Shown here piece by piece: positions 3,206 through 57,849 of a DNA stretch of 64,000 nucleotides (position 1 is the stretch's first letter; the number at the start of each line of letters is the position of its first letter). Source of the stretch: Patescibacteria group bacterium (GTDB lineage Bacteria; Patescibacteriota; Patescibacteriia; Patescibacteriales; GWC2-42-12); contig JBAZRI010000005.1 in assembly GCA_041662965.1 (NCBI GenBank), positions 6,166-70,165 on the forward strand, given 5' to 3'. The notes under the pieces are model-generated. The model was not told where the DNA came from. It worked only from the letters and a program-made list of their open reading frames with translations, and did not search any database. The position numbers were made by a program, and so were the translations under genes.

Positions 3206-3315
3206 AATCGTATCATTTATGCTCTATAATCGTATCATATTGATACGATTATGGCAAGAGTATGCAGTTTTCTTACAACAAAAATCGCCAAAAAATCAAG
3301 CCTTGCCCTATAAAC

Positions 3316-3348
3316 AAAACGCCCCGTATTCCTACGAGGCGTTTTTAT
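3316..3348 (-). terminator. Intrinsic terminator after the small CDS 3368..3547; identical 33-mer to 982..1014
   Basis: aaaacgccccgtattcctacgaggcgtttttat, 20 nt downstream of the stop at 3368 on the minus strand. Confidence 0.7.
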
Positions 3349-3367
3349 GGCCTAAATTTTTATATAG

Positions 3368-3591: not shown

Positions 3592-6006
3592 TTAGTACAA
3601 GCCGGGGAATTGCTTTTGCACGATGTCTATTGACGGCTGATCCGTCACTACTATTAATAATTGCTTGATAACGATTTTGGCGTTTTCCGTCTCACCGGTT
3701 TTCTGGTAAAGAAGCGCCAAGCTGTAAAGCGCGTTGGCATGGTTCGGATTGGCCTGGACGATGCTTAAAAATAATTGTTCGGCCATGATGATATCGTCGG
3801 TTTTTTTAACCGTGCCGCCGGTTTGGCCGGAAACGCTTAAGTCCTGATTGTTTTCCGTGCCGTTAGTGATATCTTCGGTCGCGGCCTGGGCTATGCCCGG
3901 GTTGGTGGCGACTCCGCGGTTGAAATAAAGCCGGCCGAGCTCAAAGCGGTAATCAACGTTATCTTTGGTTAAAATAACCGCCTTTTTCAGCTGGTCAATA
4001 GCCTCATCCGTTTTATTCAGTTGTTCATAAGCGATAGCTTTACCGTAGTTAGCCGCGCCGAAATCAGCTTTTTTCCCTAAGGCCAGATCGTATTTTTTAA
4101 TGGCCTCGTTGATATAATACTCTTTCTGAGTTTTATCCGTTTCCGCGTTGGCCCGCGCCATATTGATTAAAGCCATCCTTAAGTAAGGCGTCGGGCTGTC
4201 CGGCGATAATTCTATGGCTTTATTATATAGATTTTCCGCCCATTCCAAAGCGCCCTGGACATAAAAAGAGGCGTTTTCGTAAATTAAGGCCATGGCTTCG
4301 TTATTGGCAGTGCTGTTCGGCGATAAAGCTAAAGCTTTTTTACCCGTATCTATGGCTTGAGACAAGCTGTTCTCTATAACCGCTTGGTCGCGGCCGCCGG
4401 AGGCTTCCTGGTTGGCTAAAGCCATATAATTATTGGCCAAATTCAAATAGTAAATATCCTGGTAAGGCGCTAAAATAATGGCTTTATTTATTTTTTCTAT
4501 TTTTTGGTTGACATCGGCGGTCTTTAAAGATTGCATGACATAAATATCCGCCAGATACATTTTTACGCCCATGGTGAATAAAATCACCACGGCCGCGCTT
4601 AAGGTTAAGAAAATAGCCGATAAAGCCAAGGCGTATTTAGGCGAGGCGCGGAATGACAGATTAAGAGTTTTGAATTTTTCCGGATAATTGACTATGCCCA
4701 TGGCCACGGCTAAAACCGCGATCAGCCCGGAGATTAAAACCAGCGAATTATTCATGGAGAACAATAAGCTGAAAATAATGACAATAATAAAACTTGAGAA
4801 TAAGGCTAAAAGAATTGACTGCGTGTCGTTCTTTTGCACTTTAATCAAAGTTAAAAAACAAATTGACAAAGCAATCAGGGAAATAATAATTATGGCTAAA
4901 ACGCCTAAACCGCCGATCGTGGCCGCCATTTCAAACAAATAGCCGGAGGCGTTATTGAATTTAGCGTCCCATAAAGGCGAGGCGTTAAAATCAGCGCTTT
5001 TATATTTGTCAAAACTGTAGTAGAAAGTTGACGGTCCGGAGCCGAATAACAGATTATTTTTCAAGCTGGCTTTGGCAATATTGAAAGAAGCTCCGCGCGA
5101 CAGGCTCACTTCCACCGGCAGGCTTAAGCTCATGATATTAAAATTGCCTAAAACCAAAAGAATAATCAAAAGCAAAAAGCTGGTAATCGGAATAACTATG
5201 TTTGAGCTCGTGATTTTAATAATTTTTGACAAGAGAAACATTAAAACGATAACTATGCCGACGATAGCCGCCGGCCAGAAAGTAAAGCCGTTAAGCAAAG
5301 TTAAAACGAAGAGCGATATTAGGATTACTATGCCTAAGGCCGTTTTAATGGCAATTATTAAAGCTTTATTGGTTAAGCCGGCGTGAATTTCTTTAACTTG
5401 CGCCATGCCGATTACTAACAGCGGCAAAGCCATTATTAAATACATGGTTAAGCCGGAAAGCGAGCCTAAAGAATTAAAGCTGATGGCTTTAGTAAAAGCG
5501 AACGGCAGAACATATTTTCCTAAAAGCTGCAAGAGCGAAAAAATTGCGACTATTGAAGTTGAGCCGATTATGCCCCAAAATAATAATTTAATTTTTTTCT
5601 GGTCAATGTTATTTATGATCAAATAATAAAATAAAATAAAAACTATAACCGCGGCCAGGCTTTTAGACTGGTTGCCGTAAGTGCCTAATAAGCTGTCCTT
5701 TTGGCTGATTGATAAAATCGTGGAAGTTATAAAAATGGCTAAAAAGCCGACGATCGGCCAATCAAGCGGCGTTCTTTTAATGTTTAATTCGCCGATAATC
5801 ACGGCTTTAGTCACCCAGGCCACGGCGCCTAAGAGCACCAAGAAGTAGAATAAAGTCATTTTTTCAAAACCCATGTTTTGCGCCACCAGGCCGGTAAAAA
5901 ACAGCGGGCAGAGAAAAAATACCATAAAAATCGCGCCGATGATAACGAAATCCAAACCCTTGGTGGTGGTTATTTGGTGTTTGGAAATAATCTTTTTTTC
6001 TTCCAT
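3592..6006 (-). CDS. Polytopic membrane protein, O-antigen ligase/polymerase-like, with C-terminal TPR repeats
   Basis: 804 aa. About 12 hydrophobic segments in the N-terminal 500 aa. The C-terminal 300 aa has repeated TPR-like A..Y/A..A patterns (NLANNYMALA, YGKAIAYEQL, ALYSLALLYQKTG). Confidence 0.55.
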   Translation of the reverse strand: MEEKKIISKHQITTTKGLDFVIIGAIFMVFFLCPLFFTGLVAQNMGFEKMTLFYFLVLLGAVAWVTKAVIIGELNIKRTPLDWPIVGFLAIFITSTILSISQKDSLLGTYGNQSKSLAAVIVFILFYYLIINNIDQKKIKLLFWGIIGSTSIVAIFSLLQLLGKYVLPFAFTKAISFNSLGSLSGLTMYLIMALPLLVIGMAQVKEIHAGLTNKALIIAIKTALGIVILISLFVLTLLNGFTFWPAAIVGIVIVLMFLLSKIIKITSSNIVIPITSFLLLIILLVLGNFNIMSLSLPVEVSLSRGASFNIAKASLKNNLLFGSGPSTFYYSFDKYKSADFNASPLWDAKFNNASGYLFEMAATIGGLGVLAIIIISLIALSICFLTLIKVQKNDTQSILLALFSSFIIVIIFSLLFSMNNSLVLISGLIAVLAVAMGIVNYPEKFKTLNLSFRASPKYALALSAIFLTLSAAVVILFTMGVKMYLADIYVMQSLKTADVNQKIEKINKAIILAPYQDIYYLNLANNYMALANQEASGGRDQAVIENSLSQAIDTGKKALALSPNSTANNEAMALIYENASFYVQGALEWAENLYNKAIELSPDSPTPYLRMALINMARANAETDKTQKEYYINEAIKKYDLALGKKADFGAANYGKAIAYEQLNKTDEAIDQLKKAVILTKDNVDYRFELGRLYFNRGVATNPGIAQAATEDITNGTENNQDLSVSGQTGGTVKKTDDIIMAEQLFLSIVQANPNHANALYSLALLYQKTGETENAKIVIKQLLIVVTDQPSIDIVQKQFPGLY

Positions 6007-9392: not shown

Positions 9393-9574
9393 TCTAAATT
9401 AATTGTTATCGCGAGGAGAGCGGCGGTGCGACGCGGCAATCTGATTATTTGTCATCTCGACGACCGCAGGGAGGAGAGATCTATAATAGTCGGCTAGCTC
9501 GACTGTCAAGAATTATAGATTTCTCGCCTACGGCTCGAAATGACAAAACTACAGAGTCGCCCGCAATGACAAAT
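9385..9574. repeat. Cluster of GC-rich palindromic repeat modules (family 1 variants)
   Basis: gttatcgcgag...gcggcaatct; inverted pair gtcatctcga...atctataat / attatagat...tcgaaatgac around a central palindrome; gcccgcaatgac. Confidence 0.85.
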
Positions 9575-9578
9575 AGCC

Positions 9579-12350
9579 TTATTTTTCCTCAACGATTATG
9601 CCGATTATTTTATCCTGATTTAAATCTTCGGTGATTAACCAGCCGTCCGCGCCGCCGCCTAAATCAACCGGATATTTCCAGATTGGCGCGAAGCCGCCGC
9701 CTAATTTTAATTCGCTGGTTATGGTGGATGAATTCATGCCCGGCTGTTTTTGCACTAACAGCGAATATGAATATAAATTTTTCTGTTCCGGATTTAAAAC
9801 CGCGCCGGCCTTGGTGATAAGCTGATCCGCGAAATTATCTCCGGCCGGCTCCGGCTTAGCGGTTAATTTAAAAGGCAGTTTATATTTTATATTTATTTCA
9901 ACGGTTTCCCCCGGGTCAAGCTGGGACCAGTTGGCGAAGACGGTTTTATTGAATTCATTATAAATTTTCGTGCCGGTGGCTTCGTCCGTTCGCGCCTGGC
10001 TTTCGGCGGCGAAAACTTCGGGATCATTTTCCAGGCCGGCCATTTCTTTATCAAAAAATATTTTATCCACCGGCTTAAAGCCGCTAACTTCCAATAATTC
10101 CGAGCCGAGCGGCACGTAAACTCTTAGCCAATTAACGTTTCTCACTCCGGAAAAAGGCTCGCGCTTAATCGCTTCATGAACGCGCCTAATAGTTAAATTA
10201 TTAATAATTGACCCGTCCGGCTGAATTTCGCTTTGCTGGATAATTTCCTGCTTGATTTTACGGTCGCTTTTTCCGCCGGCGATGTTAGTATTGATAACAT
10301 TTAAATAATCGCCGGCCGTATCTTTAATCCGGCCGCTCCAGCCCAAGTCATCGGCTTTAGCCTGTAAAGCTTCATCCGTAAAATAAAATAAAATATTTTT
10401 GCCGGCGAGCGACTCTTCAATCGCCTTAAATAACGGCCCTAAATTATCCTTAGTCAGCCGCTTAGGCAATTCTTCAATAATTTTATTCATTAAATCACCG
10501 ATGATTTTTTTCGGCTCTCTGGTTACGTCCGGTTTTTGCTCGGCCAGTTTTTGCGTTTCCATAAAGAAATTATCCGCGCCGATAGTTAAGCCGTATTTTT
10601 CTTGCAAATCCACCGGGCCGATTATGGCTAACAATTTTTCCATCACGGTTGGCGTAAAGCTAATAACGCCGTCAACGGTTGAACCGTCGGAATTTTCATA
10701 AAACCAAGCGAGCTTTTCCGCGCTGGTCGGCCAATCCGGCCACCAATTCGCGTCCCAAAAATGCCAATCGGCCCTAACCAGACTTAAAGGCTCCGGCGCT
10801 TTTATTTTTTTTAAAAAACCGGCATCAGTATCGTAGCTGCCGCCGCCCGGAACTTCAATATTTTTTATCTCGCCTTTGGAAAAATCTATTAAAGCAAAAC
10901 TGCCGATAAAGCCGCCCGAAGCGCGCAGTTCCGAGTTATTTTGAAAGACTAATAGATAGCGCTTAGCCGCGCTGGCGCCTAAAAAATTTCCGAGGCTATC
11001 GGCTAAACTGATAAATTCTTTTAAGCCGCGGCTAAGCTGGCCGGCTTTTTGTTTTAATAAAATAAATTCTGTTTGGTAATTTTCCGGTATAACCTCGCTG
11101 TTTATCTGGTCTAAGGTTTTATTTAATTCGCTTAAATCGGTTATGGCGTTATTTCCGTAAAAACTTAAATTCTTTAAAATGTTATTAACGTTATCGGCCC
11201 GGTAGCTAAACAGGCTCTCCATAGCCAAGCTTAAATTTTTTCCCGCGGCCGCGCTTAGCTCGCCGGCGCGCAAAATATTTTTGCCGGCGGCGGCCAGGCG
11301 CATATTTTTATCAGGCAAAACCGAAGCTAAAGCGAAAAGCAAACCGTTGATTTCTTTTAGCTCGTTTTGCGCGCTTAAAAAATTATCGCCGGCGCTTTTA
11401 AAGCCTTGGCCGGCTTGGTTAAAATTAAAATTCGCGGCCGATTGCCCGGCGGAAATTAAATTGCCAATGGCGCTCTCGCTGGCGCCTAAAACCTTGCCGC
11501 GAACCACGTTGATAACTTTATAATAGGTAAAAGCTTTAACCGGTAAAATTATGATAAATAATATTCCGGCGAAAATTAAAACCGGCTTTAAGTAGCCAAC
11601 TAACCGCCTGTCATTGCGAGGAGCGATAGCGACGAAGCAATCTCTTTCTTCGCCAACAGATTTCTTTTCCGCCGCCGCGAGCGACCGCAGGGAGCGAAGC
11701 AATCTCGCGAAGATTGAAACAGCCGCTAGCTGCTTAGCCTGAAGGTCTTGAGGTATATTTTTAATAACTTTATTTACTGCCGGGTGAAATTTAATAAATA
11801 ACAGATAACCCGCTTTTTTAATCGGCTTAATTATGGCTAAAAGCAAAAAGTAAGCCAGCCTTAAAATAAAGACGATTGTCCAGCCGGCCGCGTAGCAAAT
11901 TTTATAAAGCAGCCAATAAACTTTTTTTAGAATAAAATACAGCGCCTTGCCTAAAACGATAAGCGCCAGCTGATTAGATAAAACAACCAAGTAACTGTCA
12001 TTGCGAGCGACCGCAGGGAGCGCGGCAATCTTATTCTTTCTCTTTTTGTCATTGCGAGCTGGCTTTTCCTTTGTCATTCCCGCGAAGGCGGGAATCCAGA
12101 AATTACGGCTGCGAACCATTAAGGCTATAATATTCTTTTTGGCATTTTCACTCCCCGCCTTTAGTATTCCCTTGTAATCCACTTCCGCCAATTTTTCCAG
12201 CTTTTCTTCAAGACGTCCGACGTCTCCAAGACGTCGGACGTCTTTTGCTTTGGTTTCTTCTTTAGGCAGATTCTGCTTTAAATCAATAACAAAACGGGAC
12301 GATTTCACATCCGGGTTAACTTTTAAATTATGGGGATTATTTAAAGCCAT
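9579..12350 (-). CDS. DUF4012 domain protein (paralog 1) with repeat-derived N-terminal extension
   Basis: LLVFQNNSELRASGGFIGSFALIDFSKGEI and WHFWDANWWPDWP parallel the second paralog at 30561..32555. The N-terminal ~250 aa carries in-frame repeat modules. Confidence 0.8.
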   Translation of the reverse strand: MALNNPHNLKVNPDVKSSRFVIDLKQNLPKEETKAKDVRRLGDVGRLEEKLEKLAEVDYKGILKAGSENAKKNIIALMVRSRNFWIPAFAGMTKEKPARNDKKRKNKIAALPAVARNDSYLVVLSNQLALIVLGKALYFILKKVYWLLYKICYAAGWTIVFILRLAYFLLLAIIKPIKKAGYLLFIKFHPAVNKVIKNIPQDLQAKQLAAVSIFARLLRSLRSLAAAEKKSVGEERDCFVAIAPRNDRRLVGYLKPVLIFAGILFIIILPVKAFTYYKVINVVRGKVLGASESAIGNLISAGQSAANFNFNQAGQGFKSAGDNFLSAQNELKEINGLLFALASVLPDKNMRLAAAGKNILRAGELSAAAGKNLSLAMESLFSYRADNVNNILKNLSFYGNNAITDLSELNKTLDQINSEVIPENYQTEFILLKQKAGQLSRGLKEFISLADSLGNFLGASAAKRYLLVFQNNSELRASGGFIGSFALIDFSKGEIKNIEVPGGGSYDTDAGFLKKIKAPEPLSLVRADWHFWDANWWPDWPTSAEKLAWFYENSDGSTVDGVISFTPTVMEKLLAIIGPVDLQEKYGLTIGADNFFMETQKLAEQKPDVTREPKKIIGDLMNKIIEELPKRLTKDNLGPLFKAIEESLAGKNILFYFTDEALQAKADDLGWSGRIKDTAGDYLNVINTNIAGGKSDRKIKQEIIQQSEIQPDGSIINNLTIRRVHEAIKREPFSGVRNVNWLRVYVPLGSELLEVSGFKPVDKIFFDKEMAGLENDPEVFAAESQARTDEATGTKIYNEFNKTVFANWSQLDPGETVEINIKYKLPFKLTAKPEPAGDNFADQLITKAGAVLNPEQKNLYSYSLLVQKQPGMNSSTITSELKLGGGFAPIWKYPVDLGGGADGWLITEDLNQDKIIGIIVEEK
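11610..11709. repeat. Family-1 modules inside the DUF4012 CDS
   Basis: gtcattgcgaggagcgatagcgacgaagcaatctc and gcgagcgaccgcagggagcgaagcaatctcgcg, read in frame as ...CFVAIAPRND... and ...LRSLRSLAAA... Confidence 0.9.
11997..12099. repeat. Family-1 modules inside the DUF4012 CDS
   Basis: gtcattgcgagcgaccgcagggagcgcggcaatct, gtcattgcgagc, gtcattcccgcgaaggcgggaatccag, read in frame as ...PAFAGMTKEKPARNDKK...AALPAVARND... Confidence 0.9.
12211..12243. repeat. Tandem 15-nt palindromes agacgtcSgacgtct (each with two GACGTC cores) inside the CDS
   Basis: agacgtccgacgtct (12211..12225) and agacgtcggacgtct (12229..12243). A third copy lies at 39251..39265. Confidence 0.9.
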
Positions 12351-12526
12351 TTATTTTTATAAAATACAAAAAATTTCTGTTTTTAAAGCAGTGTGAGTAG
12401 TTATTAACAGTTATTATTATAACACAAAATATGGAAAAGAAGAAAATATTAGATTTTATAAAAAAATAAGGTCTGAATGCATTTGCTTTAAGTAAGCATC
12501 TGCATCCAAACCTTTTGAACTTCGGA

Positions 12527-13126
12527 CTACGCCACCGGTAAGAAACCGACGGAGAATCTTCTGCCTGACTCAATTATTTGAGTGGAAGGCAATGAGTTTA
12601 CAATGAATTTGCCAACGTCAAAAAACTGATTAACCGCCAATTTTACGTTTGATTTAATTTTGGTGGATCCATCCACCGCCTGTGCGCGGAGATAGGATAT
12701 CTTGCCTTTTTTTGTTTCCTTGTTTTTGAGCTCTATTAAAGCCGTTACTTCACTACCAGCTTTTTCTTTCTCCGCCCCAAAAACATAGACTGGTATAAAT
12801 CCTCCTTTGACACTTTTCCGGCATTCCCAGTACGGCTCTATGCCTTGGCCAGGCTGATTGTATTTGGCATCTCGGTCAATGCGTAAATTCGCCAAAACCG
12901 GCTCCCAGATATTCTCTCTGGCTATTCCACCTGCATTTGCTACATTATTGCCGATTCTGGCTTCGTCCGCCGTCTTGACAATACTATCTACTGCTTTTGT
13001 CGCCTCAAAACCGATAACCTCAAAACAATTCCTACAAGTCCTTGCTTTATCTGATTTGTTTTTACCGCAAACCGGACAACCCTTGCCCGACGCCAGAACT
13101 TCCGCCAACAATATAATCGTATTCAT
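12527..13126 (-). CDS. Hypothetical protein with N-terminal CxxC...CxxC zinc ribbon (SD-led island gene)
   Basis: 199 aa. CPVCGKNKSDKARTCRNC. Strong SD GGAGGG 6 nt upstream of the ATG. No family recognised. Confidence 0.65.
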   Translation of the reverse strand: MNTIILLAEVLASGKGCPVCGKNKSDKARTCRNCFEVIGFEATKAVDSIVKTADEARIGNNVANAGGIARENIWEPVLANLRIDRDAKYNQPGQGIEPYWECRKSVKGGFIPVYVFGAEKEKAGSEVTALIELKNKETKKGKISYLRAQAVDGSTKIKSNVKLAVNQFFDVGKFIVNSLPSTQIIESGRRFSVGFLPVA

Positions 13127-15886: not shown

Positions 15887-16007
15887 GTCATTGCGGGCTT
15901 GACCCGCAATCCAGGTTAAATCCGTAATAAATTTGCGATTAAAATATACTTTCAGAAACAACACCTGTGCTTTCTATTCTGGATTCCGGCTCGGAGGCCG
16001 GAATGAC
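15887..16007. repeat. Composite repeat: module C forward (15887..15914) and module D reverse (15979..16007)
   Basis: gtcattgcgggcttgacccgcaatccag ... ctggattccggctcggaggccggaatgac. Module D lies inside the 3' end of CDS 15939..17747. Confidence 0.9.
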
Positions 16008-17747
16008 AGAGGAAATTGAGCTTTGCAATGACAATTTATATAAAGTAAAATCTTCGGTAACTTTGGCTACGGTTTCTATTTTTAAGCCGAAGGGCGGCAG
16101 TTTTCTGTTATTTAAATAATTAAAATCTTTCTCCGGAAAAGTAAAATTATAATAATAAACCGGCAGATATTGAGTTAAAACCGCGTATTCTTTTATCATA
16201 TTAGGGTCGTCAAACAAGCCGACGATCACTTTTCTGGCCGGAAATAACAGCTTATCATGATACTGGGTGACGATAACCGCTCTGGCTTCGGTTAAATTCA
16301 AAATTTGCTCGTATTCGGCGCGAACCGCCAGTTGCTTTTGCGCCGATTTTATCAGGCCTTCTTCCGAACCGAATAAAACAAACCTGATGGAAATAAAAAA
16401 TACCAATAAAATTATTAAGGCGCGCAGGCCGTAAATAAATATTTTTTTCTTGAAAATATTGGATAACTTCACTAAAAAAATAACGGCCAAAGGTATGGCG
16501 CCAAGATAAATCGGCAGCCAGTAGCGGGTATAGGAATTGCCGATGGTCCGGCTTTTAGGATCCGGATTGTCATGAAAATCCCAACTGCCGTAATAGGAAA
16601 TTAAAATCGCGGCCGCGGCGAATAAAGCCAATAAATAAACATAATGCTTTTTCCGCCATTTTTTTATTTTTGACAAGAGGAGCAGAAAGCCGAAAAACGC
16701 CGGCCAGAAAATCCAATAAAACATTTTAGCGAAATAAAAATACAGCATTTTCAGGCTTTTAAGCGGCTGATAGCCGAAGTGAAAAATATTATTTTTTATC
16801 TGCGTTAAATCGTTTTTAACCGCCCCGGAATTTATAGCCCCGATTTTTAAAATTTCCGAGCCGGCGCTGGCAATATTTAAGATAGACTGGTTCATTTCGT
16901 TATAGCCGCCGCGCCAAAATGATTGATAGAGTATTTTATTCCAATACATGGCCGGCGACAAAGCGAAAAATAAGCAGGCGATAAAAATCATAAGCTTGAT
17001 CAGGCCGAATTTTTTAATATTAAACAGCCAGATTACGAGCCAGACCGGAGCCAGCCAGATTAATTCAGAAGTCCGCGTTATTATAGTTAGGCCTAAAAAA
17101 GCGCCGCTTAAACCGGCGGCCAGATTCGGTAAAATACCGGCGGCGGCAGTCTTAACTTTATCCATATCCGGCTCGGCCTTTTTCTTTTTTACGGATATTA
17201 CGGCGAAATAAAGGCTGATGACAAGCAAGACAACGAACAGCACATTATGGAACATGCTGCGGGCGCTGTAATAAACCAAGGGCGGAAAAACGGCGAGAAC
17301 CAGCGCGGAAATTAAAGCGTTGCGTTTGCCGAAAATCTGCTTAATCAATAAATAATAAAAAATAATGCCTAAAGCGGCGAAAAACGGCGTGAGATACGGT
17401 AAAATTTTATAAGTGGTTAAGCCGGCGATCTTGCCGTAAATTAAAATAATGCCTAAAAAACTTACCGGCTTTAAGTAGCCGAAATCGCTTCTGACGCTGC
17501 GCGGATGCAGGATATCGGAAGACAGAATATTATATTTTTCATAAATCATCAGCTGGCCTTCCTGGGCGTAAAGTTTGGTAAAATTATAATTCGCCGATTC
17601 GTCCGGCGACAGCCATTTAACAAAATCTCCGGATTGCGTATAATAATTAAAGCTGGCCGTGCCGATGAAAAAACAAACCGCGGCCATAATTATAACAATT
17701 ATACGCCAGTATTTTTTCAGCCATTTTTTAAATACGCCCAATATCAT
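15939..17747 (-). CDS. GT-C-fold (family 39/ArnT/PMT-like) polytopic membrane glycosyltransferase, putative
   Basis: 602 aa with many hydrophobic segments, inside a glycosylation gene cluster. The C-terminal tail VIPASEPESRIESTG is repeat-derived. Confidence 0.5.
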   Translation of the reverse strand: MILGVFKKWLKKYWRIIVIIMAAVCFFIGTASFNYYTQSGDFVKWLSPDESANYNFTKLYAQEGQLMIYEKYNILSSDILHPRSVRSDFGYLKPVSFLGIILIYGKIAGLTTYKILPYLTPFFAALGIIFYYLLIKQIFGKRNALISALVLAVFPPLVYYSARSMFHNVLFVVLLVISLYFAVISVKKKKAEPDMDKVKTAAAGILPNLAAGLSGAFLGLTIITRTSELIWLAPVWLVIWLFNIKKFGLIKLMIFIACLFFALSPAMYWNKILYQSFWRGGYNEMNQSILNIASAGSEILKIGAINSGAVKNDLTQIKNNIFHFGYQPLKSLKMLYFYFAKMFYWIFWPAFFGFLLLLSKIKKWRKKHYVYLLALFAAAAILISYYGSWDFHDNPDPKSRTIGNSYTRYWLPIYLGAIPLAVIFLVKLSNIFKKKIFIYGLRALIILLVFFISIRFVLFGSEEGLIKSAQKQLAVRAEYEQILNLTEARAVIVTQYHDKLLFPARKVIVGLFDDPNMIKEYAVLTQYLPVYYYNFTFPEKDFNYLNNRKLPPFGLKIETVAKVTEDFTLYKLSLQSSISSVIPASEPESRIESTGVVSESIF

Positions 17748-17770
17748 ATATTTTTTTACATTGTTTCTAC

Positions 17771-17869
17771 TGTCATTGCGAGGAGCTTCAGCGACGAAGC
17801 AATCTCACGTACTCGGAATTTAACCAGAGATTGCTTCGTCGCCCCGAGTACGGGGCTTCTCGCAATGAC
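17771..17869. repeat. Inverted pair of family-1 units
   Basis: gtcattgcgag-gagcttcag-cgacgaagcaatctc ... gagattgcttcgtcg-ccccgagtacggggctt-ctcgcaatgac. Confidence 0.9.
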
Positions 17870-21975: not shown

Positions 21976-22149
21976 TGTCATTGCGAGAAGTGAATGAAGC
22001 GGAGCGTAATGAGCGACGAAGCAATCTCTGGTTTAATGGCGTGTGCGTGGATTTTTACCAGAGATTGCTTCGTCGCTGAAGCTCCTCGCAATGACAAATT
22101 AAATTTAAATTTAAAAAATGCACAAACCTGCCTACCGGCAGGCAGGTTT
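21976..22149. repeat. Inverted pair of family-1 units plus a cctgcc...ggcagg hairpin module
   Basis: gtcattgcgag...cgacgaagcaatctctgg / ccagagattgcttcgtcgctgaagctcctcgcaatgac; aaacctgcctaccggcaggcaggttt (22124..22149). Confidence 0.9.
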
Positions 22150-24501: not shown

Positions 24502-24525
24502 AAATAATTATATTAGCACCTCATG

Positions 24526-24624
24526 TTTGGGCTAAATTTATAAAATTTTCGTGCGAGGACTGTTTGAGCCCAAGTAATCTTGGGTGAGTTCCGAGAGGAG
24601 AAAATTTTATAAATTTAGCCCAAA
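24526..24624. repeat. Rod-like hairpin element, family 2, copy 1
   Basis: Perfect 25-bp arms tttgggctaaatttataaaattttc / gaaaattttataaatttagcccaaa. Cores gtgcgaggactgtttgag and gagttccgagaggag. Apical hairpin cccaag-taat-cttggg. Confidence 0.9.
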
Positions 24625-24643
24625 CTATATGTCGTAAATTTTT

Positions 24644-25690: not shown

Positions 25691-27919
25691 TTACTTATTG
25701 ATTTTTATACTGCCTACGCTTACTCCGCCGCCGAAACTTTCTTCATAAGCATAAAACGAGCCAACGATTCTGCCATCAGCTTTAAAAACGCGGACATGAG
25801 GCGCTCCGCCCGGACCGGCGGCGGTTATAATTTCATCCAAGCCGTCATTATCTACGTCGGCTTTAGCTAAATTCACGCCGCCGCGGAAATTACTGTTAAA
25901 GGCGAAAAAATGCGATAATAAATTTCCTTTGCCGTCAAAAAATTTAATATGCGGCCCGCCGTTTTTTTCCGGCGCGGTAATAATATCCGCTCGATTGCCC
26001 CTTGAGCCGCTTCTAACGCTGGCGATCGTGACTTTAACGCCGCCGCGGAAAGTTTTAGGGTAGGCCAAAAATTGCCCTTGTAAAATGCCGCCGGCTTTAA
26101 AGATTCTAACTTCGGGAATTTTTCCGGCCGCCAAACCGGTCACTATTTCATCTTCGCCGTCGCCGTCTATGTCGCCGGTAGCGATATTAAGCCCGCCTTT
26201 AAACTTATTATCATAAGCGTAAAATGAGCCTAGCACCTGGCCGCGGCCGTTAAAAATTTTTATTTCCGAATTTCCGCCCGTAGCTTGCGCGGCGATAATT
26301 TCATCACTGCCGTCATTGTTAACGTCGGCAGCGGCAATGTTAACGCCGCCGCGGAAATTACTGTTAAAAGCAAAGAATTGGCCGATCGGCTCTCCTTTCA
26401 GGTTAAAAATCCTGATATGCGGCCCGCCGCCAAGCCCGGCCGCGGTAATAATTTCCTGTTGGCCGTCATGATTTATGTCCCCGGAAGCAAAATTAACGCC
26501 GCCTTTAAAATTATTGGCGTAGGCGTAAAACTCGCTATCTTTTTTGCCGTCTTGATCGGTAATTTTTATAAGGCTGGCCAGGCCGTTTTTCGGCCCAATC
26601 AGCAATTTTTCAATTTTATTATTTAACAGGCTCTGCGCGTAATTAACCGCGGCCGCGATATTCAGCCTGCCTTTGCCAAGCTGGCCTAAATATTTCGGAT
26701 TTAACCGACTGATATTATCCGTATTATCCAATAGCGTTTTTATAATCTGGTCTCGGTTTAAAGCCGGGTTAGCGCTGGCTATTAAAGCCAACGCGCCGCT
26801 TACCATGGGCACGGCGACCGAGGTACCGGACCAATAACCGTCATAATATTTATTAAACGGCTGGCCATTTAAGTAATTATCAGGCGAATAAACCACTGTG
26901 CTGAAAACACTGACCCCGGGCGCGGCAATATCAATGCATTTATTGCCAAAACTGGAAAAAGCCGCTTTCTGGTCTAAAGTATCGGTTGCGGCTACGCCGA
27001 TTACTCGGTTCTCGCCGTTAGCGCCATCAAGGCAAACCGGATACATGGGAGTTTGATCCAAATAATAGCCATCTCCCTGGCCGACTTCATTGCCTCCGGC
27101 AGCCACCACGATTATTCCGGCGTTATAAGCGCGTTTTATGGCGTCATCAAGGCCTTGGCTGTAGCCAAAGCCGACAAAACTTAGATTTATAATATTAGCG
27201 CCGTTGGCGACCGCGTAATCAACCGCCTTGATAACTTTAGAAGCGCTGCCTTCGCCTTTGTCATCCAAAACTTTAAGCGGCATAATTTTCGCTTTCCAGG
27301 TTATGCCGGCTATGCCGGCGGCGTTATTGCCGGAAGCCGCGGCTATACCGGCGATAATCGTGCCGTGCAATATTCCGTCTTCGCTAAAATCCGGCTTAAA
27401 CTTTGGCGACGGATCAGGCACATTATTGACAAAATCCCAGCCGTTAACATCATCAATAAAACCGTTTCTGTCATCATCAATATTGTTATCGGCGATTTCT
27501 TTTTTATTAAGCCAGATATTGCTTCTTAAATCGGGATGGCTGATTTGCACTCCTGAATCTAAAATGGCGATGACAATCTCGGGGCTTTCCCTTTTATTGT
27601 CCCAAGTTTCAATGGCTTTAACTTTTTGCAGATACCATTGATTATTGAAATAAGTATCAGACGGTATTATGGCGGCTTGATAAAGATAATTCGGCTCGGC
27701 ATATTCCACTTCCGGCAAACCGCTATAATAATTTAAAAAATTATTAAAATCGCCTGCTTGAGCAATTTTAATGGCTATCGGTTCGGTTGAAGCTTTAAAT
27801 TTCACCAATATTTCATCAGCGACAAAATTATTTTGGATAGCGCCAAAAGCATTATGGCCGGTGAATATAATCAGCCCAAATAAAAATATAATAAAAAAAG
27901 ATGTTATATTCTTTTTCAT
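25691..27919 (-). CDS. Secreted S8 (subtilisin-family) serine peptidase with C-terminal FG-GAP/VCBS-like repeats
   Basis: Catalytic triad contexts AILDSGV, HGTIIAG and SGTSVAVP. Repeated DxNxDGxxEII...GGPHIRIF units. Start moved to MKKNITSFF (signal peptide-like). Confidence 0.85.
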   Translation of the reverse strand: MKKNITSFFIIFLFGLIIFTGHNAFGAIQNNFVADEILVKFKASTEPIAIKIAQAGDFNNFLNYYSGLPEVEYAEPNYLYQAAIIPSDTYFNNQWYLQKVKAIETWDNKRESPEIVIAILDSGVQISHPDLRSNIWLNKKEIADNNIDDDRNGFIDDVNGWDFVNNVPDPSPKFKPDFSEDGILHGTIIAGIAAASGNNAAGIAGITWKAKIMPLKVLDDKGEGSASKVIKAVDYAVANGANIINLSFVGFGYSQGLDDAIKRAYNAGIIVVAAGGNEVGQGDGYYLDQTPMYPVCLDGANGENRVIGVAATDTLDQKAAFSSFGNKCIDIAAPGVSVFSTVVYSPDNYLNGQPFNKYYDGYWSGTSVAVPMVSGALALIASANPALNRDQIIKTLLDNTDNISRLNPKYLGQLGKGRLNIAAAVNYAQSLLNNKIEKLLIGPKNGLASLIKITDQDGKKDSEFYAYANNFKGGVNFASGDINHDGQQEIITAAGLGGGPHIRIFNLKGEPIGQFFAFNSNFRGGVNIAAADVNNDGSDEIIAAQATGGNSEIKIFNGRGQVLGSFYAYDNKFKGGLNIATGDIDGDGEDEIVTGLAAGKIPEVRIFKAGGILQGQFLAYPKTFRGGVKVTIASVRSGSRGNRADIITAPEKNGGPHIKFFDGKGNLLSHFFAFNSNFRGGVNLAKADVDNDGLDEIITAAGPGGAPHVRVFKADGRIVGSFYAYEESFGGGVSVGSIKINK

Positions 27920-27960
27920 AACATCTTTATTATAACATAAGTTGCCGGTATTTTTCAAAT

Positions 27961-29229
27961 CTAAATTTTTTCCAAAAGCGCCAATGTTTCCCGGGCGCAT
28001 TTAGCCAGGCTAAAGTCTTTTACTCTGATAAAACCGTTAGAGATTAATTGATCGGCCAATTCTCTGTCCAATAATATTTTCGCCATTTTTTGCGCCATAT
28101 CATCCTTATCCCCCGGGTTGAAAAGCAAAGCTGAATCTTTAACAACTTCCCTTATGGAAGCGATATTGGAAGCCGCGACCGGCGTGCCGCAAACCATGGC
28201 CTGGAGCAAAGGTATGCCAAACCCTTCATAGAGCGAAGGAAAAACAAATAAAGCGGCGCCGTTATAAATATAAGGCATATCGGCTTCCGGCACCCAGCCG
28301 GTCATAATTACGTTATCTTCAAGATCATATTCGTTTATGACATATTTAATTTCATCATAGCCGGAGTCGGCTCTGCCTACTAAAACCAACTTAGGCTTTA
28401 TCTGGCTGAATTTTTGCCTCATGATGGCATAAGCGCCGACCAGATTAGCGGTATTTTTCTTTTTTTCCAAGCGGCCGGCATAAAAAATATAAGGGGCTTT
28501 AATGTCATATTTATTTAAAACTTGTTTTATTTTTTCCGCGTCCTGAATCGGGCGATAAAGCGCGCCGTTAAAGCCGTTATAAACCACTTTAATTTTTTCC
28601 GCGTCAGCTTGATAAAATTCCACCATTTCTTTTTTAGTAAATTCAGACACCGCGATAATTGTTTTGGCGTGCTTGAGCGCGAATTTCGTTGACCAGCTAT
28701 GATAATCAATAACATTTGAATGAAACTTGCCTAAAGTAAACAACCTGACTAAAAAATTGAAAACTCCGGAAATTAAGCCGCTGGCCGGGCCGATTTTATC
28801 CGAACTGTAAAGTTTGGCCTGGCGCTCAAAACCTATGTCATGGATAGTAACGATTGATTTTTTCGGATGAATAACCGGCAGAGTGTGAGCCGGTATGAAA
28901 AGTACGTCTGCCCGATGCATTAACATTTCATAAGACAAGCGAATTTGCGTCCAAAAAAAAGTAAAAGGCCAGTTTAAAATTTTAACGCGGAAATTACAAT
29001 TTGGACTTTTAATTTCTTGCCAGCCGTAGCCGTCTATTTTACCCGGCTTAGCCGAATAATTTTCATCGGTTAAATCAGCTAAGCCGCCGGTTAAAGGCTT
29101 ATCACTATATAAAATATATTGATTTTTTGAATCAATTTTAGCCAGCTCTCTTATCAAATAATAAGAATACCACTCCGTACCGCCTTTAAATTTTCTATTC
29201 GCCCTTGAGGCGTCAATGCCGATAAGCAT
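27961..29229 (-). CDS. Glycosyltransferase family 4
   Basis: EGFGIPLLQAMVCGTPVAASN. Confidence 0.85.
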   Translation of the reverse strand: MLIGIDASRANRKFKGGTEWYSYYLIRELAKIDSKNQYILYSDKPLTGGLADLTDENYSAKPGKIDGYGWQEIKSPNCNFRVKILNWPFTFFWTQIRLSYEMLMHRADVLFIPAHTLPVIHPKKSIVTIHDIGFERQAKLYSSDKIGPASGLISGVFNFLVRLFTLGKFHSNVIDYHSWSTKFALKHAKTIIAVSEFTKKEMVEFYQADAEKIKVVYNGFNGALYRPIQDAEKIKQVLNKYDIKAPYIFYAGRLEKKKNTANLVGAYAIMRQKFSQIKPKLVLVGRADSGYDEIKYVINEYDLEDNVIMTGWVPEADMPYIYNGAALFVFPSLYEGFGIPLLQAMVCGTPVAASNIASIREVVKDSALLFNPGDKDDMAQKMAKILLDRELADQLISNGFIRVKDFSLAKCARETLALLEKI

Positions 29230-29245
29230 AAAAATTGTATATAAT

Positions 29246-29360
29246 ATTGGGCTAAATTTAGAAAATTTTCGTGCGAGGACTGCCTGCCTGCCGGCAGGCA
29301 GGTTTGAGGAGCTTTAAGCGACGAGTTCCGCAGTAGAAAATTTACTAAATTTAGCCCAAT
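29246..29360. repeat. Rod-like hairpin element, family 2, copy 2 (carries an extra inserted GC hairpin)
   Basis: attgggctaaatttagaaaattttc...gaaaatttactaaatttagcccaat. Core gtgcgaggactg followed by inserted cctgcctgccggcaggcagg, then tttgag...gagttccgcagtag. Confidence 0.9.
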
Positions 29361-29380
29361 TAATATGTAGTATAATAATT

Positions 29381-30388
29381 TTATTTCGTCGCAAAAATAC
29401 TCCGTTTATACGAGTCCAAATTCTCAAGCGCTATCCCCGTGCCTTTGGCCACGCAAAGAAGCGCGTCGTCCGCCACGTAAGCCGGCACGTCGGTGGTGCG
29501 TGAAAGCAACTGGTCAATGTTTCTTAGGAGCGACGAGCCGCCCGAGAGTACCATGCCTTTATCCATAATGTCGGCGGCTAATTCCGGCGGAGTATCCTGC
29601 AAAACTCTTTTAGCGGCTTGGATTATAGCTTCCAGCTCATTTTGAATCGCTTCGGTAACATCATCGGAATTAACCATAATATTTCTCGGTAAGCCGGTAA
29701 TCATATCGCGGCCGCGTATTTCCATGGTTAATTTGTCTTCCAAATATAAAGCGCTGCCGATTTTAATTTTAGTCTCCTCGGCCGTTCTTTCGCCGATGGC
29801 TAAATTATATTTTCGCCTGATAAATTCCTGAATGGCCGCGTCAAATTTATTGCCGCCGATGCGCACCGAAGTTGAAGTTACTACTCCGCCTAGTGAAATT
29901 ACCGCCATTTCCGCCGTGCCGCCGCCAATATCAATAATCATATGCCCGGAAGCCGAACCGATGGGAATATCGGCGCCGATAGCCGCGGCAATCGGCTCTT
30001 TTATAATATAAGCCGCTCTGGCTCCGGCCGCGATAGTCGCGTCAATAACCGCCCGGCGTTCGGTTGAAGTAATGCCGGCCGGAACCGCTACCATAACTTC
30101 CGGCCGGAACAATCTTATGCCGCCTAGAGCTTTATTGATAAAATATCGGAGCATGGCTTCGGTAGTATGATAATCGGCAATCACGCCGTCTTTCAGCGGC
30201 TTAATGGCGACAATAGTGTCCGGCGTTCGGCCTAACATATCTTTAGCTTCATTGCCCACGGCTAAAATCTTTTTATCAATCAAAGAAATCGCCACCACCG
30301 AAGGTTCGTTAATAATAATGCCTCTTTTAGGCAGATGCACTAAAGTATAAGTTGTACCTAAATCTATGCCGATCCGCTTGATAAACAT
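29381..30388 (-). CDS. mreB: Rod shape-determining protein MreB
   Basis: IGIDLGTTYTLV, actin-fold motifs throughout. Start moved to MFIKR because the upstream ATG lies inside a repeat module. Confidence 0.9.
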   Translation of the reverse strand: MFIKRIGIDLGTTYTLVHLPKRGIIINEPSVVAISLIDKKILAVGNEAKDMLGRTPDTIVAIKPLKDGVIADYHTTEAMLRYFINKALGGIRLFRPEVMVAVPAGITSTERRAVIDATIAAGARAAYIIKEPIAAAIGADIPIGSASGHMIIDIGGGTAEMAVISLGGVVTSTSVRIGGNKFDAAIQEFIRRKYNLAIGERTAEETKIKIGSALYLEDKLTMEIRGRDMITGLPRNIMVNSDDVTEAIQNELEAIIQAAKRVLQDTPPELAADIMDKGMVLSGGSSLLRNIDQLLSRTTDVPAYVADDALLCVAKGTGIALENLDSYKRSIFATK

Positions 30389-30398
30389 AAGATATAAT

Positions 30399-30551
30399 GT
30401 CATTGCGAGAAGCCTGTAATCAGGCGACGAAGCAATCTCTTCCTTATTGTCATTCCCGCGAAAGCGGGAATCCAGGTTTAAACGCTATAAACAAGTTTCT
30501 GGATTGCGGGTCAAGCCCGCAATGACGAAGTAAATTTCGCTCGCAATGACA
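30399..30551. repeat. Repeat cluster: family-1 unit, composite B-spacer-C element, terminal aatgac
   Basis: gtcattgcgag-aagcctgtaatcagg-cgacgaagcaatctc; gtcattcccgcgaaagcgggaatccag (30449..30475), a 23-nt spacer, then ctggattgcgggtcaagcccgcaatgac (30499..30526). Confidence 0.9.
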
Positions 30552-30560
30552 AATAAGAAT

Positions 30561-32555
30561 TTAAAACTTAACTTCAAAGCTTCTATCTATATTTAAGTCC
30601 CCTTCCCACTTGATACTGGCCGGGCTTACTTTTCGCATATACAGGCTGGCTGGGCTATATGATTTTATACTATTTTTGAAGTTTAAGTCAACCGTAAGAT
30701 TATCTAGCTCTTTACCCGGCTGTTTTTGGATATAAAGGCCGTAGTTATTATTTAGCCTAACCGACGGCGGCAGCTTATACTCAACCGTAAGATTTTTAAT
30801 TTTCCCCGGATCAACGGTTAGATAAAAACCAAACCAAGTTTTCCCCGCTTCATTACCCGTGTCTATCTCCTTGGCGTCGTAACCGCTGATTTTAATTAAT
30901 TGGCTGCCTAACGGAACGTAGATTCTGGTATAGCTTTTATAAACGCTGGTTCTCCAATCAACCTTGCCGTTATGCGCGTAATTAAGAGTTAATTTAGAAA
31001 ATAAGCCATTAGCCCCCTCGGTTACTTTATAATTTATGCTCCGGCTCATAACCGCGTCGGTTTTTAAAGCCCCGAAATTAGCATCAACTACCATAAAATA
31101 ATCGCTATAATAATTCTTTATTTCTCCGGCCCAGCCGTTAGCCGCCGCGATGCTTTCTAATTGGTTGTCAGTTAAATAAAGCAATAAATCCTTCTCGGCT
31201 AAATTATTAATCGCGGTATTTATAATTTCCGACCATTGGTTCGGCGGCAAATCAAAAATTTTAATTTTTAATTTTTTAGCTATTTCGCCGATAACTTCTT
31301 TCCTCTGCCAATTAGAAACGCCTAAAACCATATAGCCTCTTTCTACCTGATATTGCAATAAATCGTGAAAATTGTTTTGGTCATAAGATTGGCCTTCAAC
31401 TATTATCGGGCCGGTTATTTTCAAAAAATCAGTGATTAATTTCGGCGTAAAGGCGATAACGCCGTTAAACTTTGGAATTTTCTCCGCCTCCGGGTTTAAA
31501 CGGCTTTCAATTTGATAAAACTTATCTATGTTTTTCGCGGCGGTCGGCCAATCAGGCGACCAGTTAGCGTCGCGCATATACCATTTATCGTTTAAATACT
31601 TTTTAATCGGTTCCGGCGGCTCCATATTCATTTTGCTTTGAGCCGGCATGTCAAGGTGATAAATATCATGCGTGCCAAAATTTATTATATCGCCGTCTTT
31701 AATTTTTAATATGGCGTAAGTGCCTAAAAATCCCCCGGTCGGCCTTAATTCGTCATTATTCTGCAGCAAGACTAAATAATTAACTTCGCTGGGGTAGCCG
31801 GCCAGAGCCGGAATCATCTGCGACAAAGGAACTGCTTTCTCTAAAATAAGGCTGGCTTGGCTTATTTGTTCTTTAACCTGGCCGATTTTATCTTTTAAGA
31901 TAAACAAAATGCCCGAGGTGCTTATTTGATCTAAATTAATATAAGCTAAATCCAGATCGGCTTTTATGCCGTTTAATTCCGGCGCCGACTCAAATATTTT
32001 TCCAAGAAGATTGCGCTTGACTTCCGGGCTTAATTTAGAAAAATTAAATTTATTATCTCCGGTTAAAAAAGCTTCAAGGCTAAGGCCGAAATTCGCCCCG
32101 CCAGCGACCGCTTTGCTTAAAAATTGAACGGAAATTAAAAGGCCTTCGGCGTCGTTTAGCTGGCTTATAGCTAACGGCAGACGGCTTATAAAATTATTGC
32201 TTTTTATCTCTTCAAGCTTATTGATTGAAAAATCAAAATTATTTTCCGCTTGTTTGGCTAGCTTAACGGCTTGATTAAAATCTTTCTGTTCGGCGAAGAT
32301 AACGGCTTGCTCTAAATTAGCTTTGCCGAAATTTGCCTGATCGTAAATTTGCTTTAAATCAATAATTTGTGACGATAAAAAAATCAGCAGCAGTAAAAAT
32401 AAAAAAACTACTGTCAAGCAAAAATATTTTAAAACTTTATACGCTGAATTTAAGCGCCGGCGCTTTTTAACCGGCGGAAGCCGGCCGATTAAGCCATCGG
32501 CCGCTTCGTGCAAGTCTTTAAAATTTATATGTTTTGATTTTGAAAAATGAAACAT
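30561..32555 (-). CDS. DUF4012 domain protein (paralog 2)
   Basis: YLVLLQNNDELRPTGGFLGTYAILKIKDGDI; WYMRDANWSPDWP; N-terminal TM segment. Confidence 0.8.
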   Translation of the reverse strand: MFHFSKSKHINFKDLHEAADGLIGRLPPVKKRRRLNSAYKVLKYFCLTVVFLFLLLLIFLSSQIIDLKQIYDQANFGKANLEQAVIFAEQKDFNQAVKLAKQAENNFDFSINKLEEIKSNNFISRLPLAISQLNDAEGLLISVQFLSKAVAGGANFGLSLEAFLTGDNKFNFSKLSPEVKRNLLGKIFESAPELNGIKADLDLAYINLDQISTSGILFILKDKIGQVKEQISQASLILEKAVPLSQMIPALAGYPSEVNYLVLLQNNDELRPTGGFLGTYAILKIKDGDIINFGTHDIYHLDMPAQSKMNMEPPEPIKKYLNDKWYMRDANWSPDWPTAAKNIDKFYQIESRLNPEAEKIPKFNGVIAFTPKLITDFLKITGPIIVEGQSYDQNNFHDLLQYQVERGYMVLGVSNWQRKEVIGEIAKKLKIKIFDLPPNQWSEIINTAINNLAEKDLLLYLTDNQLESIAAANGWAGEIKNYYSDYFMVVDANFGALKTDAVMSRSINYKVTEGANGLFSKLTLNYAHNGKVDWRTSVYKSYTRIYVPLGSQLIKISGYDAKEIDTGNEAGKTWFGFYLTVDPGKIKNLTVEYKLPPSVRLNNNYGLYIQKQPGKELDNLTVDLNFKNSIKSYSPASLYMRKVSPASIKWEGDLNIDRSFEVKF

Positions 32556-35302: not shown

Positions 35303-35403
35303 ATTGGCTTTAGCTTTTGTAAAATTTTCGTGCGAGGACTGTTTGAGGCCGAGTAATCTCGGCCGAGTTCCGCAGTAGAAAATTTACAAAAACTAAAGCC
35401 AAT
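35303..35403. repeat. Rod-like hairpin element, family 2, copy 3
   Basis: Different but complementary arms attggctttagcttttgtaaaatttt / aaaatttacaaaaactaaagccaat. Same cores. Apical hairpin gccgag-taat-ctcggc. Confidence 0.9.
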
Positions 35404-38403: not shown

Positions 38404-38534
38404 ACAATTAAAATTTAAAGCAATTAGCATTACCTGGAGTAATTATACTAATTTTTAAATAATTTTACAAGCCGTCTTTAATGAAAACGCCCCGGTAAAA
38501 AACCGAGGTATTTTCACTAAATGAAAATAGTTTT

Positions 38535-39250: not shown

Positions 39251-39265
39251 AGACGTCGGACGTCT
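39251..39265. repeat. Palindrome agacgtcggacgtct between lexA and the downstream gene
   Basis: Identical to 12229..12243. Confidence 0.9.
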
Positions 39266-52231: not shown

Positions 52232-52311
52232 GTCATTGCGGGCTTGACCCGCAATCCAGAAACTCATTTGTAACGCCAAAACCTGGATTCCGGCTCGGAG
52301 GCCGGAATGAC
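52232..52311. repeat. Composite 80-nt element: module C, 23-nt spacer, module D reversed
   Basis: gtcattgcgggcttgacccgcaatccag-aaactcatttgtaacgccaaaac-ctggattccggctcggaggccggaatgac. Confidence 0.9.
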
Positions 52312-52324
52312 AAAAAAAATTTAC

Positions 52325-57561: not shown

Positions 57562-57708
57562 TCTTTCCTCCTTTTTTGCCTTATCGGCGTTTTTATGTTT
57601 ATAATAGCTTGTTATTTAAAAAGACCGCGCATTACTTTTCACAATTTCGCCCGCAGTTAGTATTACGTACGGGCAAAAAGTAAAAATTAATATGTTGTTA
57701 TATTATTG

Positions 57709-57849
57709 ATTGGGCTAAATTTATGAAATTTTCGTGAGATTACTGCAGTTAGGCTTGGAAAAATTGTTTTTATCGCGCATACGAAATTGTAGCGACCGCA
57801 GGGAGCCCAAATTTCGTCTAAGCAAAAAAAACAATTTTTCCAAGCCTAA
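57709..57849. repeat. Nested repeats: degenerate family-2 left half, then a full family-3 element with a family-1 module at its apex
   Basis: attgggctaaatttatgaaattttcgtgagattactgcag, then ttaggcttggaaaaattgttttt...gcgcatacgaaattgta-gcgaccgcagggagc-ccaaatttcgtctaagc...aaaaacaatttttccaagcctaa. Confidence 0.9.

Follow-up and report, generated by a model that had tools for sequence, protein, structure and literature searches.

The 64,000-nucleotide stretch analyzed here (the window; contig JBAZRI010000005.1 of GenBank assembly GCA_041662965.1, a Patescibacteria group bacterium) carries on its minus strand a gene for a DUF4012 protein (coding sequence [CDS] 9579..12350) that contains short palindromic repeats in frame in its N-terminal region. 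From sequence comparison, we consider it likely that these are selfish repeats that were tolerated in two dispensable linkers, filtered by selection, and translated as passengers. The gene product would be a membrane-anchored envelope protein whose N-terminal 295 residues are ancestral and comprise a conserved motif at the N terminus, one short and two hydrophobic helices, and the final transmembrane (TM) helix, these blocks being joined by two basic linkers that are probably cytoplasmic if the topology proposed below is right. The intergenic DNA of this genome harbors short GC-rich palindromic repeats, namely, dRS3-like ATTCCC-N8-GGGAAT hairpins, units ending in GCAATGACA, and GACGTCSGACGTC palindromes. 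Such repeats would repeatedly have been inserted or recombined into both linkers, and only copies that kept the frame and were free of stop codons would have survived, presumably as neutral passenger peptides such as WIPAFAGMTK, ARND, RLLRSLRSL, RDCFVAIAPRND, and DVRRLGDVGR.

The gene is a single continuous open reading frame (ORF) of 923 codons with an ATG start, and a database search showed its product to be 100% identical to a deposited "DUF4012 domain-containing protein" of a Patescibacteria group bacterium (P0001; homologous proteins and loci are designated below by P and L numbers, respectively). Residues 462 to 595 belong to the Pfam family DUF4012 (PF13196), with a score of 95.9 bits at a gathering cutoff of 28, and this core (10566..10967) lies inside an ectodomain of ~650 residues that is free of repeat modules in all homologs examined. 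A paralog at 30561..32555 (Pfam DUF4012 score, 92.9 bits) is alignable only from residue 296 of the target, corresponding to its own residue 79, so that the N terminus of the target is longer by ~217 residues. This N terminus begins with a conserved, native coding segment (aa 1 to 35, 'NLKVNPDVKSSRFVIDLK'; 12246..12350, minus strand) located upstream of all modules. Hydropathy analysis revealed three TM-like segments (aa 121 to 141, 151 to 178, and 249 to 277), of which the former two make up a hydrophobic block (aa 121 to 178; 11817..11990, minus strand) and the latter is the final TM helix (11520..11606, minus strand), the predicted anchor of the ectodomain. The module-bearing linkers, aa 58 to 120 and aa 176 to 252, are located next to these helices and have net charges of +10 and +9, which suggest an N-in topology in which both linkers are probably cytoplasmic and the DUF4012 part is outside. 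An AlphaFold2 model was poor, with a mean predicted local distance difference test (pLDDT) score of 57.5; the hydrophobic block was helical at a pLDDT of 51 to 72, whereas segments 1 to 61, 74 to 121, 196 to 208, and 216 to 255 scored below 50. Every module falls inside these low-scoring segments, which lends weak support, the model being poor overall.

The modules are located at positions 11609-12243. Five of them are members of the 'TGTCATTSCG' repeat family, a further two are AGACGTCSGACGTCT palindromes, and none contains a stop codon in the frame of the gene; their coordinates are those of the plus strand of the window, and all are read from the minus strand. In the order of translation, the palindrome pair (12229-12243 and 12211-12225; codons 36 to 47) is read as KDVRRLGDVGRL. 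The AGACGTCSGACGTCT palindrome matches the window three times, with 0 matches expected, the third copy being intergenic at 39251, and the pair is predicted to fold at the RNA level into a 16-bp stem of -28.7 kcal/mol (z score, -6.7). Unit A (CTGGATTCCCGCCTTCGCGGGAATGACA; 12071..12099), read as FWIPAFAGMTK, is identical to the intergenic copy at 30447-30475 in 28 of 29 positions and also forms an RNA hairpin (z score, -2.5). It is followed by the truncated unit B (GCTCGCAATGACA; 12047..12059), read as ARNDK, in the same order as in an intergenic A+B composite at 30398-30475. Unit C (AGATTGCCGCGCTCCCTGCGGTCGCTCGCAATGACA; 11996..12031), a member of repeat family D20, is read as KIAALPAVARNDS and has orthologous, partly decayed copies in P0003 to P0010 and P0029. 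Unit D (AGATTGCTTCGCTCCCTGCGGTCGCTCGC; 11677..11706), read as ARLLRSLRSLA, is itself decayed and has lost its GCAATGACA end; orthologs have RLLRFFQKLAMTGK at this site. Unit E (AGAGATTGCTTCGTCGCTATCGCTCCTCGCAATGACA; 11609..11646), which matches repeat families I6 and D5 and is read as ERDCFVAIAPRNDR, directly precedes the last TM helix and shares 34 of 37 positions with intergenic copies at 17770-17806 and 22060-22096. For the solo units C, D, and E, the predicted RNA folding did not surpass that of shuffled sequences. The in-gene units are 92 to 97% identical to intergenic copies in the window, measure 13 to 38 nt, and code for 5 to 14 aa each. The original prediction that repeat units and palindromes lie in frame within this gene was thus correct, but its description of ~250 residues as built from modules overstates their share, since they sum to 179 nt, or ~60 of the 295 residues (20% of the N-terminal region). 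A nonsystematic inspection by eye revealed no target site duplications at the module borders. A promoter and terminator scan of 11400-12600 gave no enrichment over shuffled sequences, and the palindrome pair is terminator-like solely on the antisense strand. Tryptic peptides spanning modules would include NFWIPAFAGMTK, DCFVAIAPR, and LGDVGR.

Several lines of evidence indicate that the long N terminus is genuine. A database search retrieved more than 40 orthologs of 820 to 990 aa that cover 100% of the query at 50 to 75% identity; relatives at the species level are Candidatus Falkowbacteria and other Patescibacteria metagenome-assembled genomes (MAGs). Gene order is conserved, with the DUF4012 gene succeeded in turn by those for a ~650-aa DUF11/DUF7619-like protein, TGT, and an 804-aa TPR protein, indicating that these homologs are positional orthologs. 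They share, in one frame, the motif 'NLKVNPGxKSSRFVIDLK', the 'EEKLEKLAEIDY' helix, the hydrophobic block (consensus 'NQLALxxLGKLLYxILKKVFxLFYKICYAxGWxIxFILRLxYFLLLAI'), the final TM helix (consensus 'GYLKPVLIFAGxLLxIILPVKAFTYYK'), and the ectodomain. Segment 1 to 35 is conserved in orthologs down to ~40% identity with an excess of third-position substitutions, and the nonmodule N-terminal segments also vary mainly at the third codon position (14/14/31 in the comparison with L001). The hydrophobic block is unchanged in orthologs that lack modules (P0013/L003, P0010, and P0019) and is thus not repeat derived, which lends no support to the idea that the modules provide an extra TM region. Since conserved coding blocks flank each module cluster in one frame, the extension appears to be real, and the modules would have to be read through unless something exotic removes them. 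The proposal that they are translated is therefore supported by the syntenic full-length orthologs, which also argue that the extension is no annotation artifact. In one locus (L084, 5784-6001; ortholog P0007), the conserved N-terminal motif seemingly forms a separate ORF of 55 aa, with the called gene beginning at 'MDLKKD', which may reflect a frameshift or an assembly error.

The modules show a mosaic distribution among the orthologs. The length of linker 1 varies between 3 aa (P0012) and 80 aa and that of linker 2 between 6 aa (P0033/P0038) and 74 aa, which suggests that both are dispensable and makes it unlikely that the modules were exapted as a needed linker, as had been proposed. The same two linkers hold differing mixes of at least four repeat families, and repeat-type peptides recur at the same three places in many orthologs. 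Before the first TM segment, we found WIPAFAGMT, WIPSPLLRGLKAAGMT, WIAGQARND, and EIASSLNAPRND. The place after the second TM segment holds the RLLRFFQKLAMTGK peptides mentioned above for unit D. The position directly before the last TM helix is occupied by an E-type unit, by a PPxPLYQGG-type unit from another family, or by the widespread motif KKEDILPRPN; the latter was considered as a decayed unit E, to which its resemblance is weak. The loops of the E-type units are very different (FVAIA, FIIDT, EACPERSEGSVFTRVQA, EPVPSNCEGSAFAVA, and FVPRVKPGAKGA). The palindrome pair, located before the 'EEKLEKLAE' helix, is present in the window and in the distant orthologs of L086 and L026 and is missing from the closest relatives of the window; its variants (GACGTC and GATGTC-GACATC) keep the palindrome through compensatory changes in L086 and L026. 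In a rough neighbor-joining (NJ) tree built from the ectodomain, the last site is not the same between sisters, with P0024 (E type) differing from P0025 (none), P0007 (E type) from P0002 and P0009 (none), and P0003 (G type) from P0006 and P0008 (none), which implies repeated gains or losses. Other copies are inherited and decaying, including unit A in L087 (three substitutions), 'LSASPVAHSNSY' in P0010 compared to 'IAALPAVARNDSY' in the window, and unit D of the window. L003 (GC content, 0.32) has no modules in the gene and no repeat copies in 22.7 kb, and L004 has copies only outside the DUF4012 gene.

Within the gene family, the repeats are concentrated in the N-terminal region. Of the xMT/RND signatures in 78 homologs, 49 were in N termini and 5 in the three-fold-longer ectodomains, and DNA-level copies numbered 11 in the N-terminal coding sequence versus 1 in the rest of the gene. 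Among 1.14 Mb of fetched loci, 13 of ~16 genuine intragenic copies were in the N terminus of this gene; some further motif matches are native protein motifs, such as VIPAFNEE of GT2 and CVIPTREGRHGK of TGT. When the peptide stretch of aa 78 to 120 was used to search a protein database, three word-sharing candidates and no hits were obtained. In ortholog P0041 (L026, 5854-6700), the N terminus has at least seven modules from four families, including an NNPLNPPLQGG module at the very start and a second dRS3-like unit in linker 2 (FRIPACAGMT).

The same families are abundant outside the gene. TGTCATTSCG occurs 16 times in the window, with 0.11 occurrences expected, and its genuine copies outside the DUF4012 gene are found in intergenic clusters or at gene ends; matches at 4649 and 24478 were rejected as modules because they are native coding sequence, the latter corresponding to the GT2 motif 'VIPAFNEE'. 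An array of the same families (9440..9575) lies directly downstream of the gene, and the intergenic clusters at 30398-30551 and 52251-52312 are composed of hairpin units with AT-rich spacers. Both DUF4012 paralogs are directly followed by hairpin-repeat arrays (9440-9575 and, with four units, 30398-30551), reminiscent of the NIME arrays beside surface protein genes, and the neighborhood in the window is an envelope glycosylation cluster. Beyond the window, the exact 28-mer of unit A (CTGGATTCCCGCCTTCGCGGGAATGACA) was found in at least 120 metagenome stretches (L088 to L207) with GC contents of 0.30 to 0.67. Near-identical copies were detected in Neisseria gonorrhoeae (at least 40 places per record, 91 to 94% identity), Legionella, and Cupriavidus, and the identity in Azospirillum was 100% over 27 to 28 nt. 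An E-like unit matched records of Halomonas, Methylocystis/Methylosinus, and Nostocales at 85 to 92%. Of 123 unit A copies, 23 were located in frames that stay open for at least 40 codons in either direction and are read as VIPAKAGIQ, CHSREGGNP, WIPAFAGMT, or LDSRLRGND. Rfam contained no family for these repeats; the subthreshold hits to mir-9449 and CRISPR-DR9 were dismissed as chance.

Survival of such units in a reading frame requires little. For 58 distinct units, 83% of the frames are stop-free with TGTCATT on the sense strand and 60% with GCAATGACA on the sense strand, the latter value reflecting the TGA in AATGACA, which always closes one frame; random 37-mers of the window leave 51% of frames open. 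Given this high share, a frame-keeping insertion has a good chance of being tolerated, and staying open needs no special selection beyond the loss of disruptive alleles. Selection for frame-neutral insertion, as originally suggested, hence stands as an ordinary survivorship filter (60% versus 51%) and as nothing more specific. Some observations nevertheless fit poorly with passive tolerance of passengers. In each of the 11 DNA copies inside the gene, GCAATGACA lies on the sense strand, compared to 21 versus 15 outside the gene, although the opposite orientation has more open frames, and a pure stop avoidance filter fails to explain this uniformity; the 11 copies are not independent events, and the bias can thus serve as a lead but not as a statistic. 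The window, L084, and L085 share an identical 30-nt core of unit A, even though the ortholog of L085 is 62% identical and has another linker sequence around the unit. For identical residues, the codons of unit A are the same in 7 of 7 cases relative to L001, L084, and L085 and in 6 of 6 relative to L086, whereas the value elsewhere in the gene is 59 to 71%. Such identity between orthologs that are 62 to 75% identical hints at nucleotide constraint, such as on the hairpin, at gene conversion from further copies, or at reinsertion rather than simple neutral drift. In addition, the in-frame TTG at codon 217 could permit a shorter product, and no transposase, RAYT, or recombinase was found among the 44 ORFs of the 64-kb window scanned against Pfam.

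Orientation and nucleotide conservation are also what keeps alive an exaptation of the modules, as basic topology-aiding linker peptides, as binding sites, or as mRNA hairpins by which translation, or the targeting of the nascent chain to the membrane, would be tuned. The strictly uniform orientation (11 R versus 0 F), the Arg/Lys-rich R-frame peptides in linkers of +10 and +9 beside TM helices, the identity of unit A at synonymous sites across orthologs, and the very stable hairpin at codons 36 to 47 are all in line with such a role. Yet orthologs without modules exist, and some orthologs have linkers as short as 3 and 6 aa; copies decay in some lineages, as seen for unit A of L087 (three substitutions) and the lost end of unit D in the window; differing families substitute for each other at the same site; and the folding of units C, D, and E is not superior to that of shuffled sequences. 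We therefore regard exaptation as unlikely overall, without dismissing it in view of the orientation bias and the nucleotide conservation. We give still less credence to a recombination hot spot, in which, as has been proposed for neisserial NIME/dRS3 arrays, a site-specific recombinase or gene conversion would act on the units, the linkers would be actively remodeled instead of being hit at random, and units would attract units. That unit A fits the dRS3 pattern and matches Neisseria repeats, that three sites are reused by several families, that the in-gene order A+B recurs in the composite at 30398-30475, that arrays flank both DUF4012 paralogs, and that modules replace sequence of similar length instead of being simply additive would all be accommodated. 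However, the scanned ORFs include no recombinase, the tree is a rough NJ tree, and tolerance combined with frequent insertion would give the same pattern. A bolder reading is that the two linkers form a natural insertion trap for ultraconserved pan-bacterial mini-repeats and that the single orientation and the nucleotide conservation among orthologs of 60 to 75% identity reflect strand-specific mobilization, gene conversion, or an mRNA-level function in place of passive tolerance. We hold this to be as doubtful as exaptation; if true, the mechanism could be read from this gene family, which would represent a series of independent, dated events.

The remaining alternatives concern the gene model and the repeats themselves. 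The true start might be located downstream, at TTG codon 217 (position 11702) or GTG codon 282, so that the modules would be part of an open 5' leader. As the original prediction stated, there is no in-frame ATG between codon ~93 and the homologous region, the only ones before residue 296 being codons 1, 78, and 92; however, TTG occurs in frame at codons 121, 169, and 217 and GTG at codon 282. A start at TTG-217 would moreover leave ~36 residues before the TM helix, close to the ~42 in the paralog. Codon inspection alone is therefore insufficient to exclude a downstream start, which the orthologs appear to exclude: more than 40 of them have conserved the protein sequence of the upstream segments, with substitutions of the coding type. 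A stretch of 295 open codons in DNA of ~41% GC is very unlikely to arise by chance, and there is no promoter-like enrichment inside the ORF. We consider this artifact very improbable, although an internal start could give a second product besides the full-length protein. Scarcely credible, and effectively refuted, is the reading in which the segments merely resemble repeats or the gene is their source. Some motif matches elsewhere are indeed native (VIPAFNEE of GT2 and CVIPTREGRHGK of TGT), but motif counts are far above those of shuffles, in-gene copies are near-identical to intergenic ones over 29 to 37 nt, and the units are present in unrelated phyla.

The passenger repeats proposed here have precedents. 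In PMC10969869, Rickettsia palindromic elements (RPEs; Ogata et al. 2000, 2002) are described as palindromic repeats of ~100 to 150 bp that are located in frame in genes and translated, the encoded peptide segments lying at positions compatible with the host protein and the same families being also intergenic; in-frame gene colonization has also been noted for ERIC and some MITEs (miniature transposable elements with inverted repeats; Delihas 2007, cited in PMC10969869). As in the RPEs described there, a dispersed palindromic repeat is present in frame in a coding gene and read through. The dimensions differ, with units of 13 to 38 nt and 5 to 14 aa here compared to ~100 to 150 bp and a conserved peptide of ~30 to 50 aa in RPEs. 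The latter are, in that account, Rickettsia specific and spread over many metabolic genes, whereas in the region examined here, at least three to four families occupy the linkers of one gene of a Falkowbacteria-like Patescibacteria MAG. By analogy, the case would thus work as RPEs do, as a small-scale counterpart in which a tolerant linker holds passengers derived from repeats, and would not amount to a new kind of system, its particulars being the very short units, the several families, and the recurrent use of the same sites.

Resemblance to other repeat classes is partial. The neisserial dRS3 is a 20-bp inverted repeat, ATTCCCNNNNNNNNGGGAAT, whose copies flank RS elements in intergenic NIME arrays, and NIMEs are described as intergenic, neisserial, and a target of a phage-encoded Piv/IS110-type recombinase (PMC1797815). 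The core of unit A, ATTCCCGCCTTCGCGGGAAT, fits ATTCCC-N8-GGGAAT and ATTCCCNNNNNNNNGGGAAT exactly, and the intergenic copies form GC-rich hairpin arrays with AT-rich spacers beside envelope protein genes, much like NIMEs. In contrast, the other units (ATTGCG...CGCAAT and GAGATTGC...GCAATGACA) are not dRS3, the copies of interest are intragenic, and none of the 44 scanned ORFs encodes a phage-type recombinase. Repetitive extragenic palindromic (REP) sequences and REPINs are short imperfect palindromes, often in inverted pairs, highly repeated, extragenic, and mobilized by RAYT (Y1) transposases (PMC3116915). Our repeats are likewise short, partly palindromic, and repeated in intergenic DNA; however, REPs are extragenic by definition and these copies are inside a CDS, no RAYT gene was detected among the same ORFs, and the in-gene units C, D, and E, as solo arms, have no predicted fold of their own. 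In cyanobacteria, very small mobile repeats measuring a few tens of bases reportedly become inserted into other sequences, among them genes, an observation attributed to Elhai and coworkers (2008). A family-1/B-like unit matches Nostocales plasmids at ~85%. Literature searches for the module peptide strings and for Patescibacteria together with "repetitive extragenic palindromic" returned nothing relevant.

If repeat passengers are the right explanation, the in-frame entry of selfish palindromic repeats into genes, for which Rickettsia is the best-known case, would extend to the reduced genomes of Patescibacteria, in a version with much smaller units and with the same tolerant linkers reused across species. 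For annotation, the long N terminus of these DUF4012 proteins would be taken as real, and WIPAFAGMT, ARND, LAMTGK, and PPTPLYQGG as repeat passengers and not as domain signatures. Two leads on the spread of mini-repeats are their biased orientation and the identity of unit A across bacteria.

Further observations concern other genes of the window. The C terminus of the PMT_2/STT3-like gene 15939..17747 appears to be a second case of translated repeats: its last ~30 residues (SLQSSISSVIPASEPESRIESTGVVSESIF; 15939-16033, minus strand) derive from two repeat units with TGTCATT on the sense strand. This tail has no counterpart in the 81% identical ortholog of L003, and the ortholog of L084 (2227-2260) has a similar repeat-derived tail, LSLRATDISVIPAGACPVLD. 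In the MreB ORF (29381..30403, minus strand), the mechanically assigned start ATG lies inside a GCAATGACA repeat end (30385-30403). Since codon 6 is another ATG and the Pfam match does not start until aa 9, the real start is probably downstream; GCAATGACA ends can supply start codons, be they spurious or real. A separate family (GGGCTAAATTTAKAAAATTTTCGTGCGAGGACTG...) occurs at 24506-24629, 29244-29380, 35303-35372, and 57704-57745, with a distance of ~100 nt between inverted partners. It is invariably intergenic and upstream of genes on the minus strand and could be a MITE or a shared regulatory region. A terminator-like hairpin (AAAACGCCCCGT....ACGGGGCGTTTTT) is found at 975-1020, 2102-2147, 3309-3354, and 38484-38514 and flanks the Fic/HTH and Fic genes located where the window begins. 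Finally, the direct repeats with a 153-nt period at 25719-26536 (minus strand) in the subtilase gene 25691..28000 correspond to the FG-GAP repeats of the protein and are an ordinary intragenic domain repetition, unrelated to mobile repeats.

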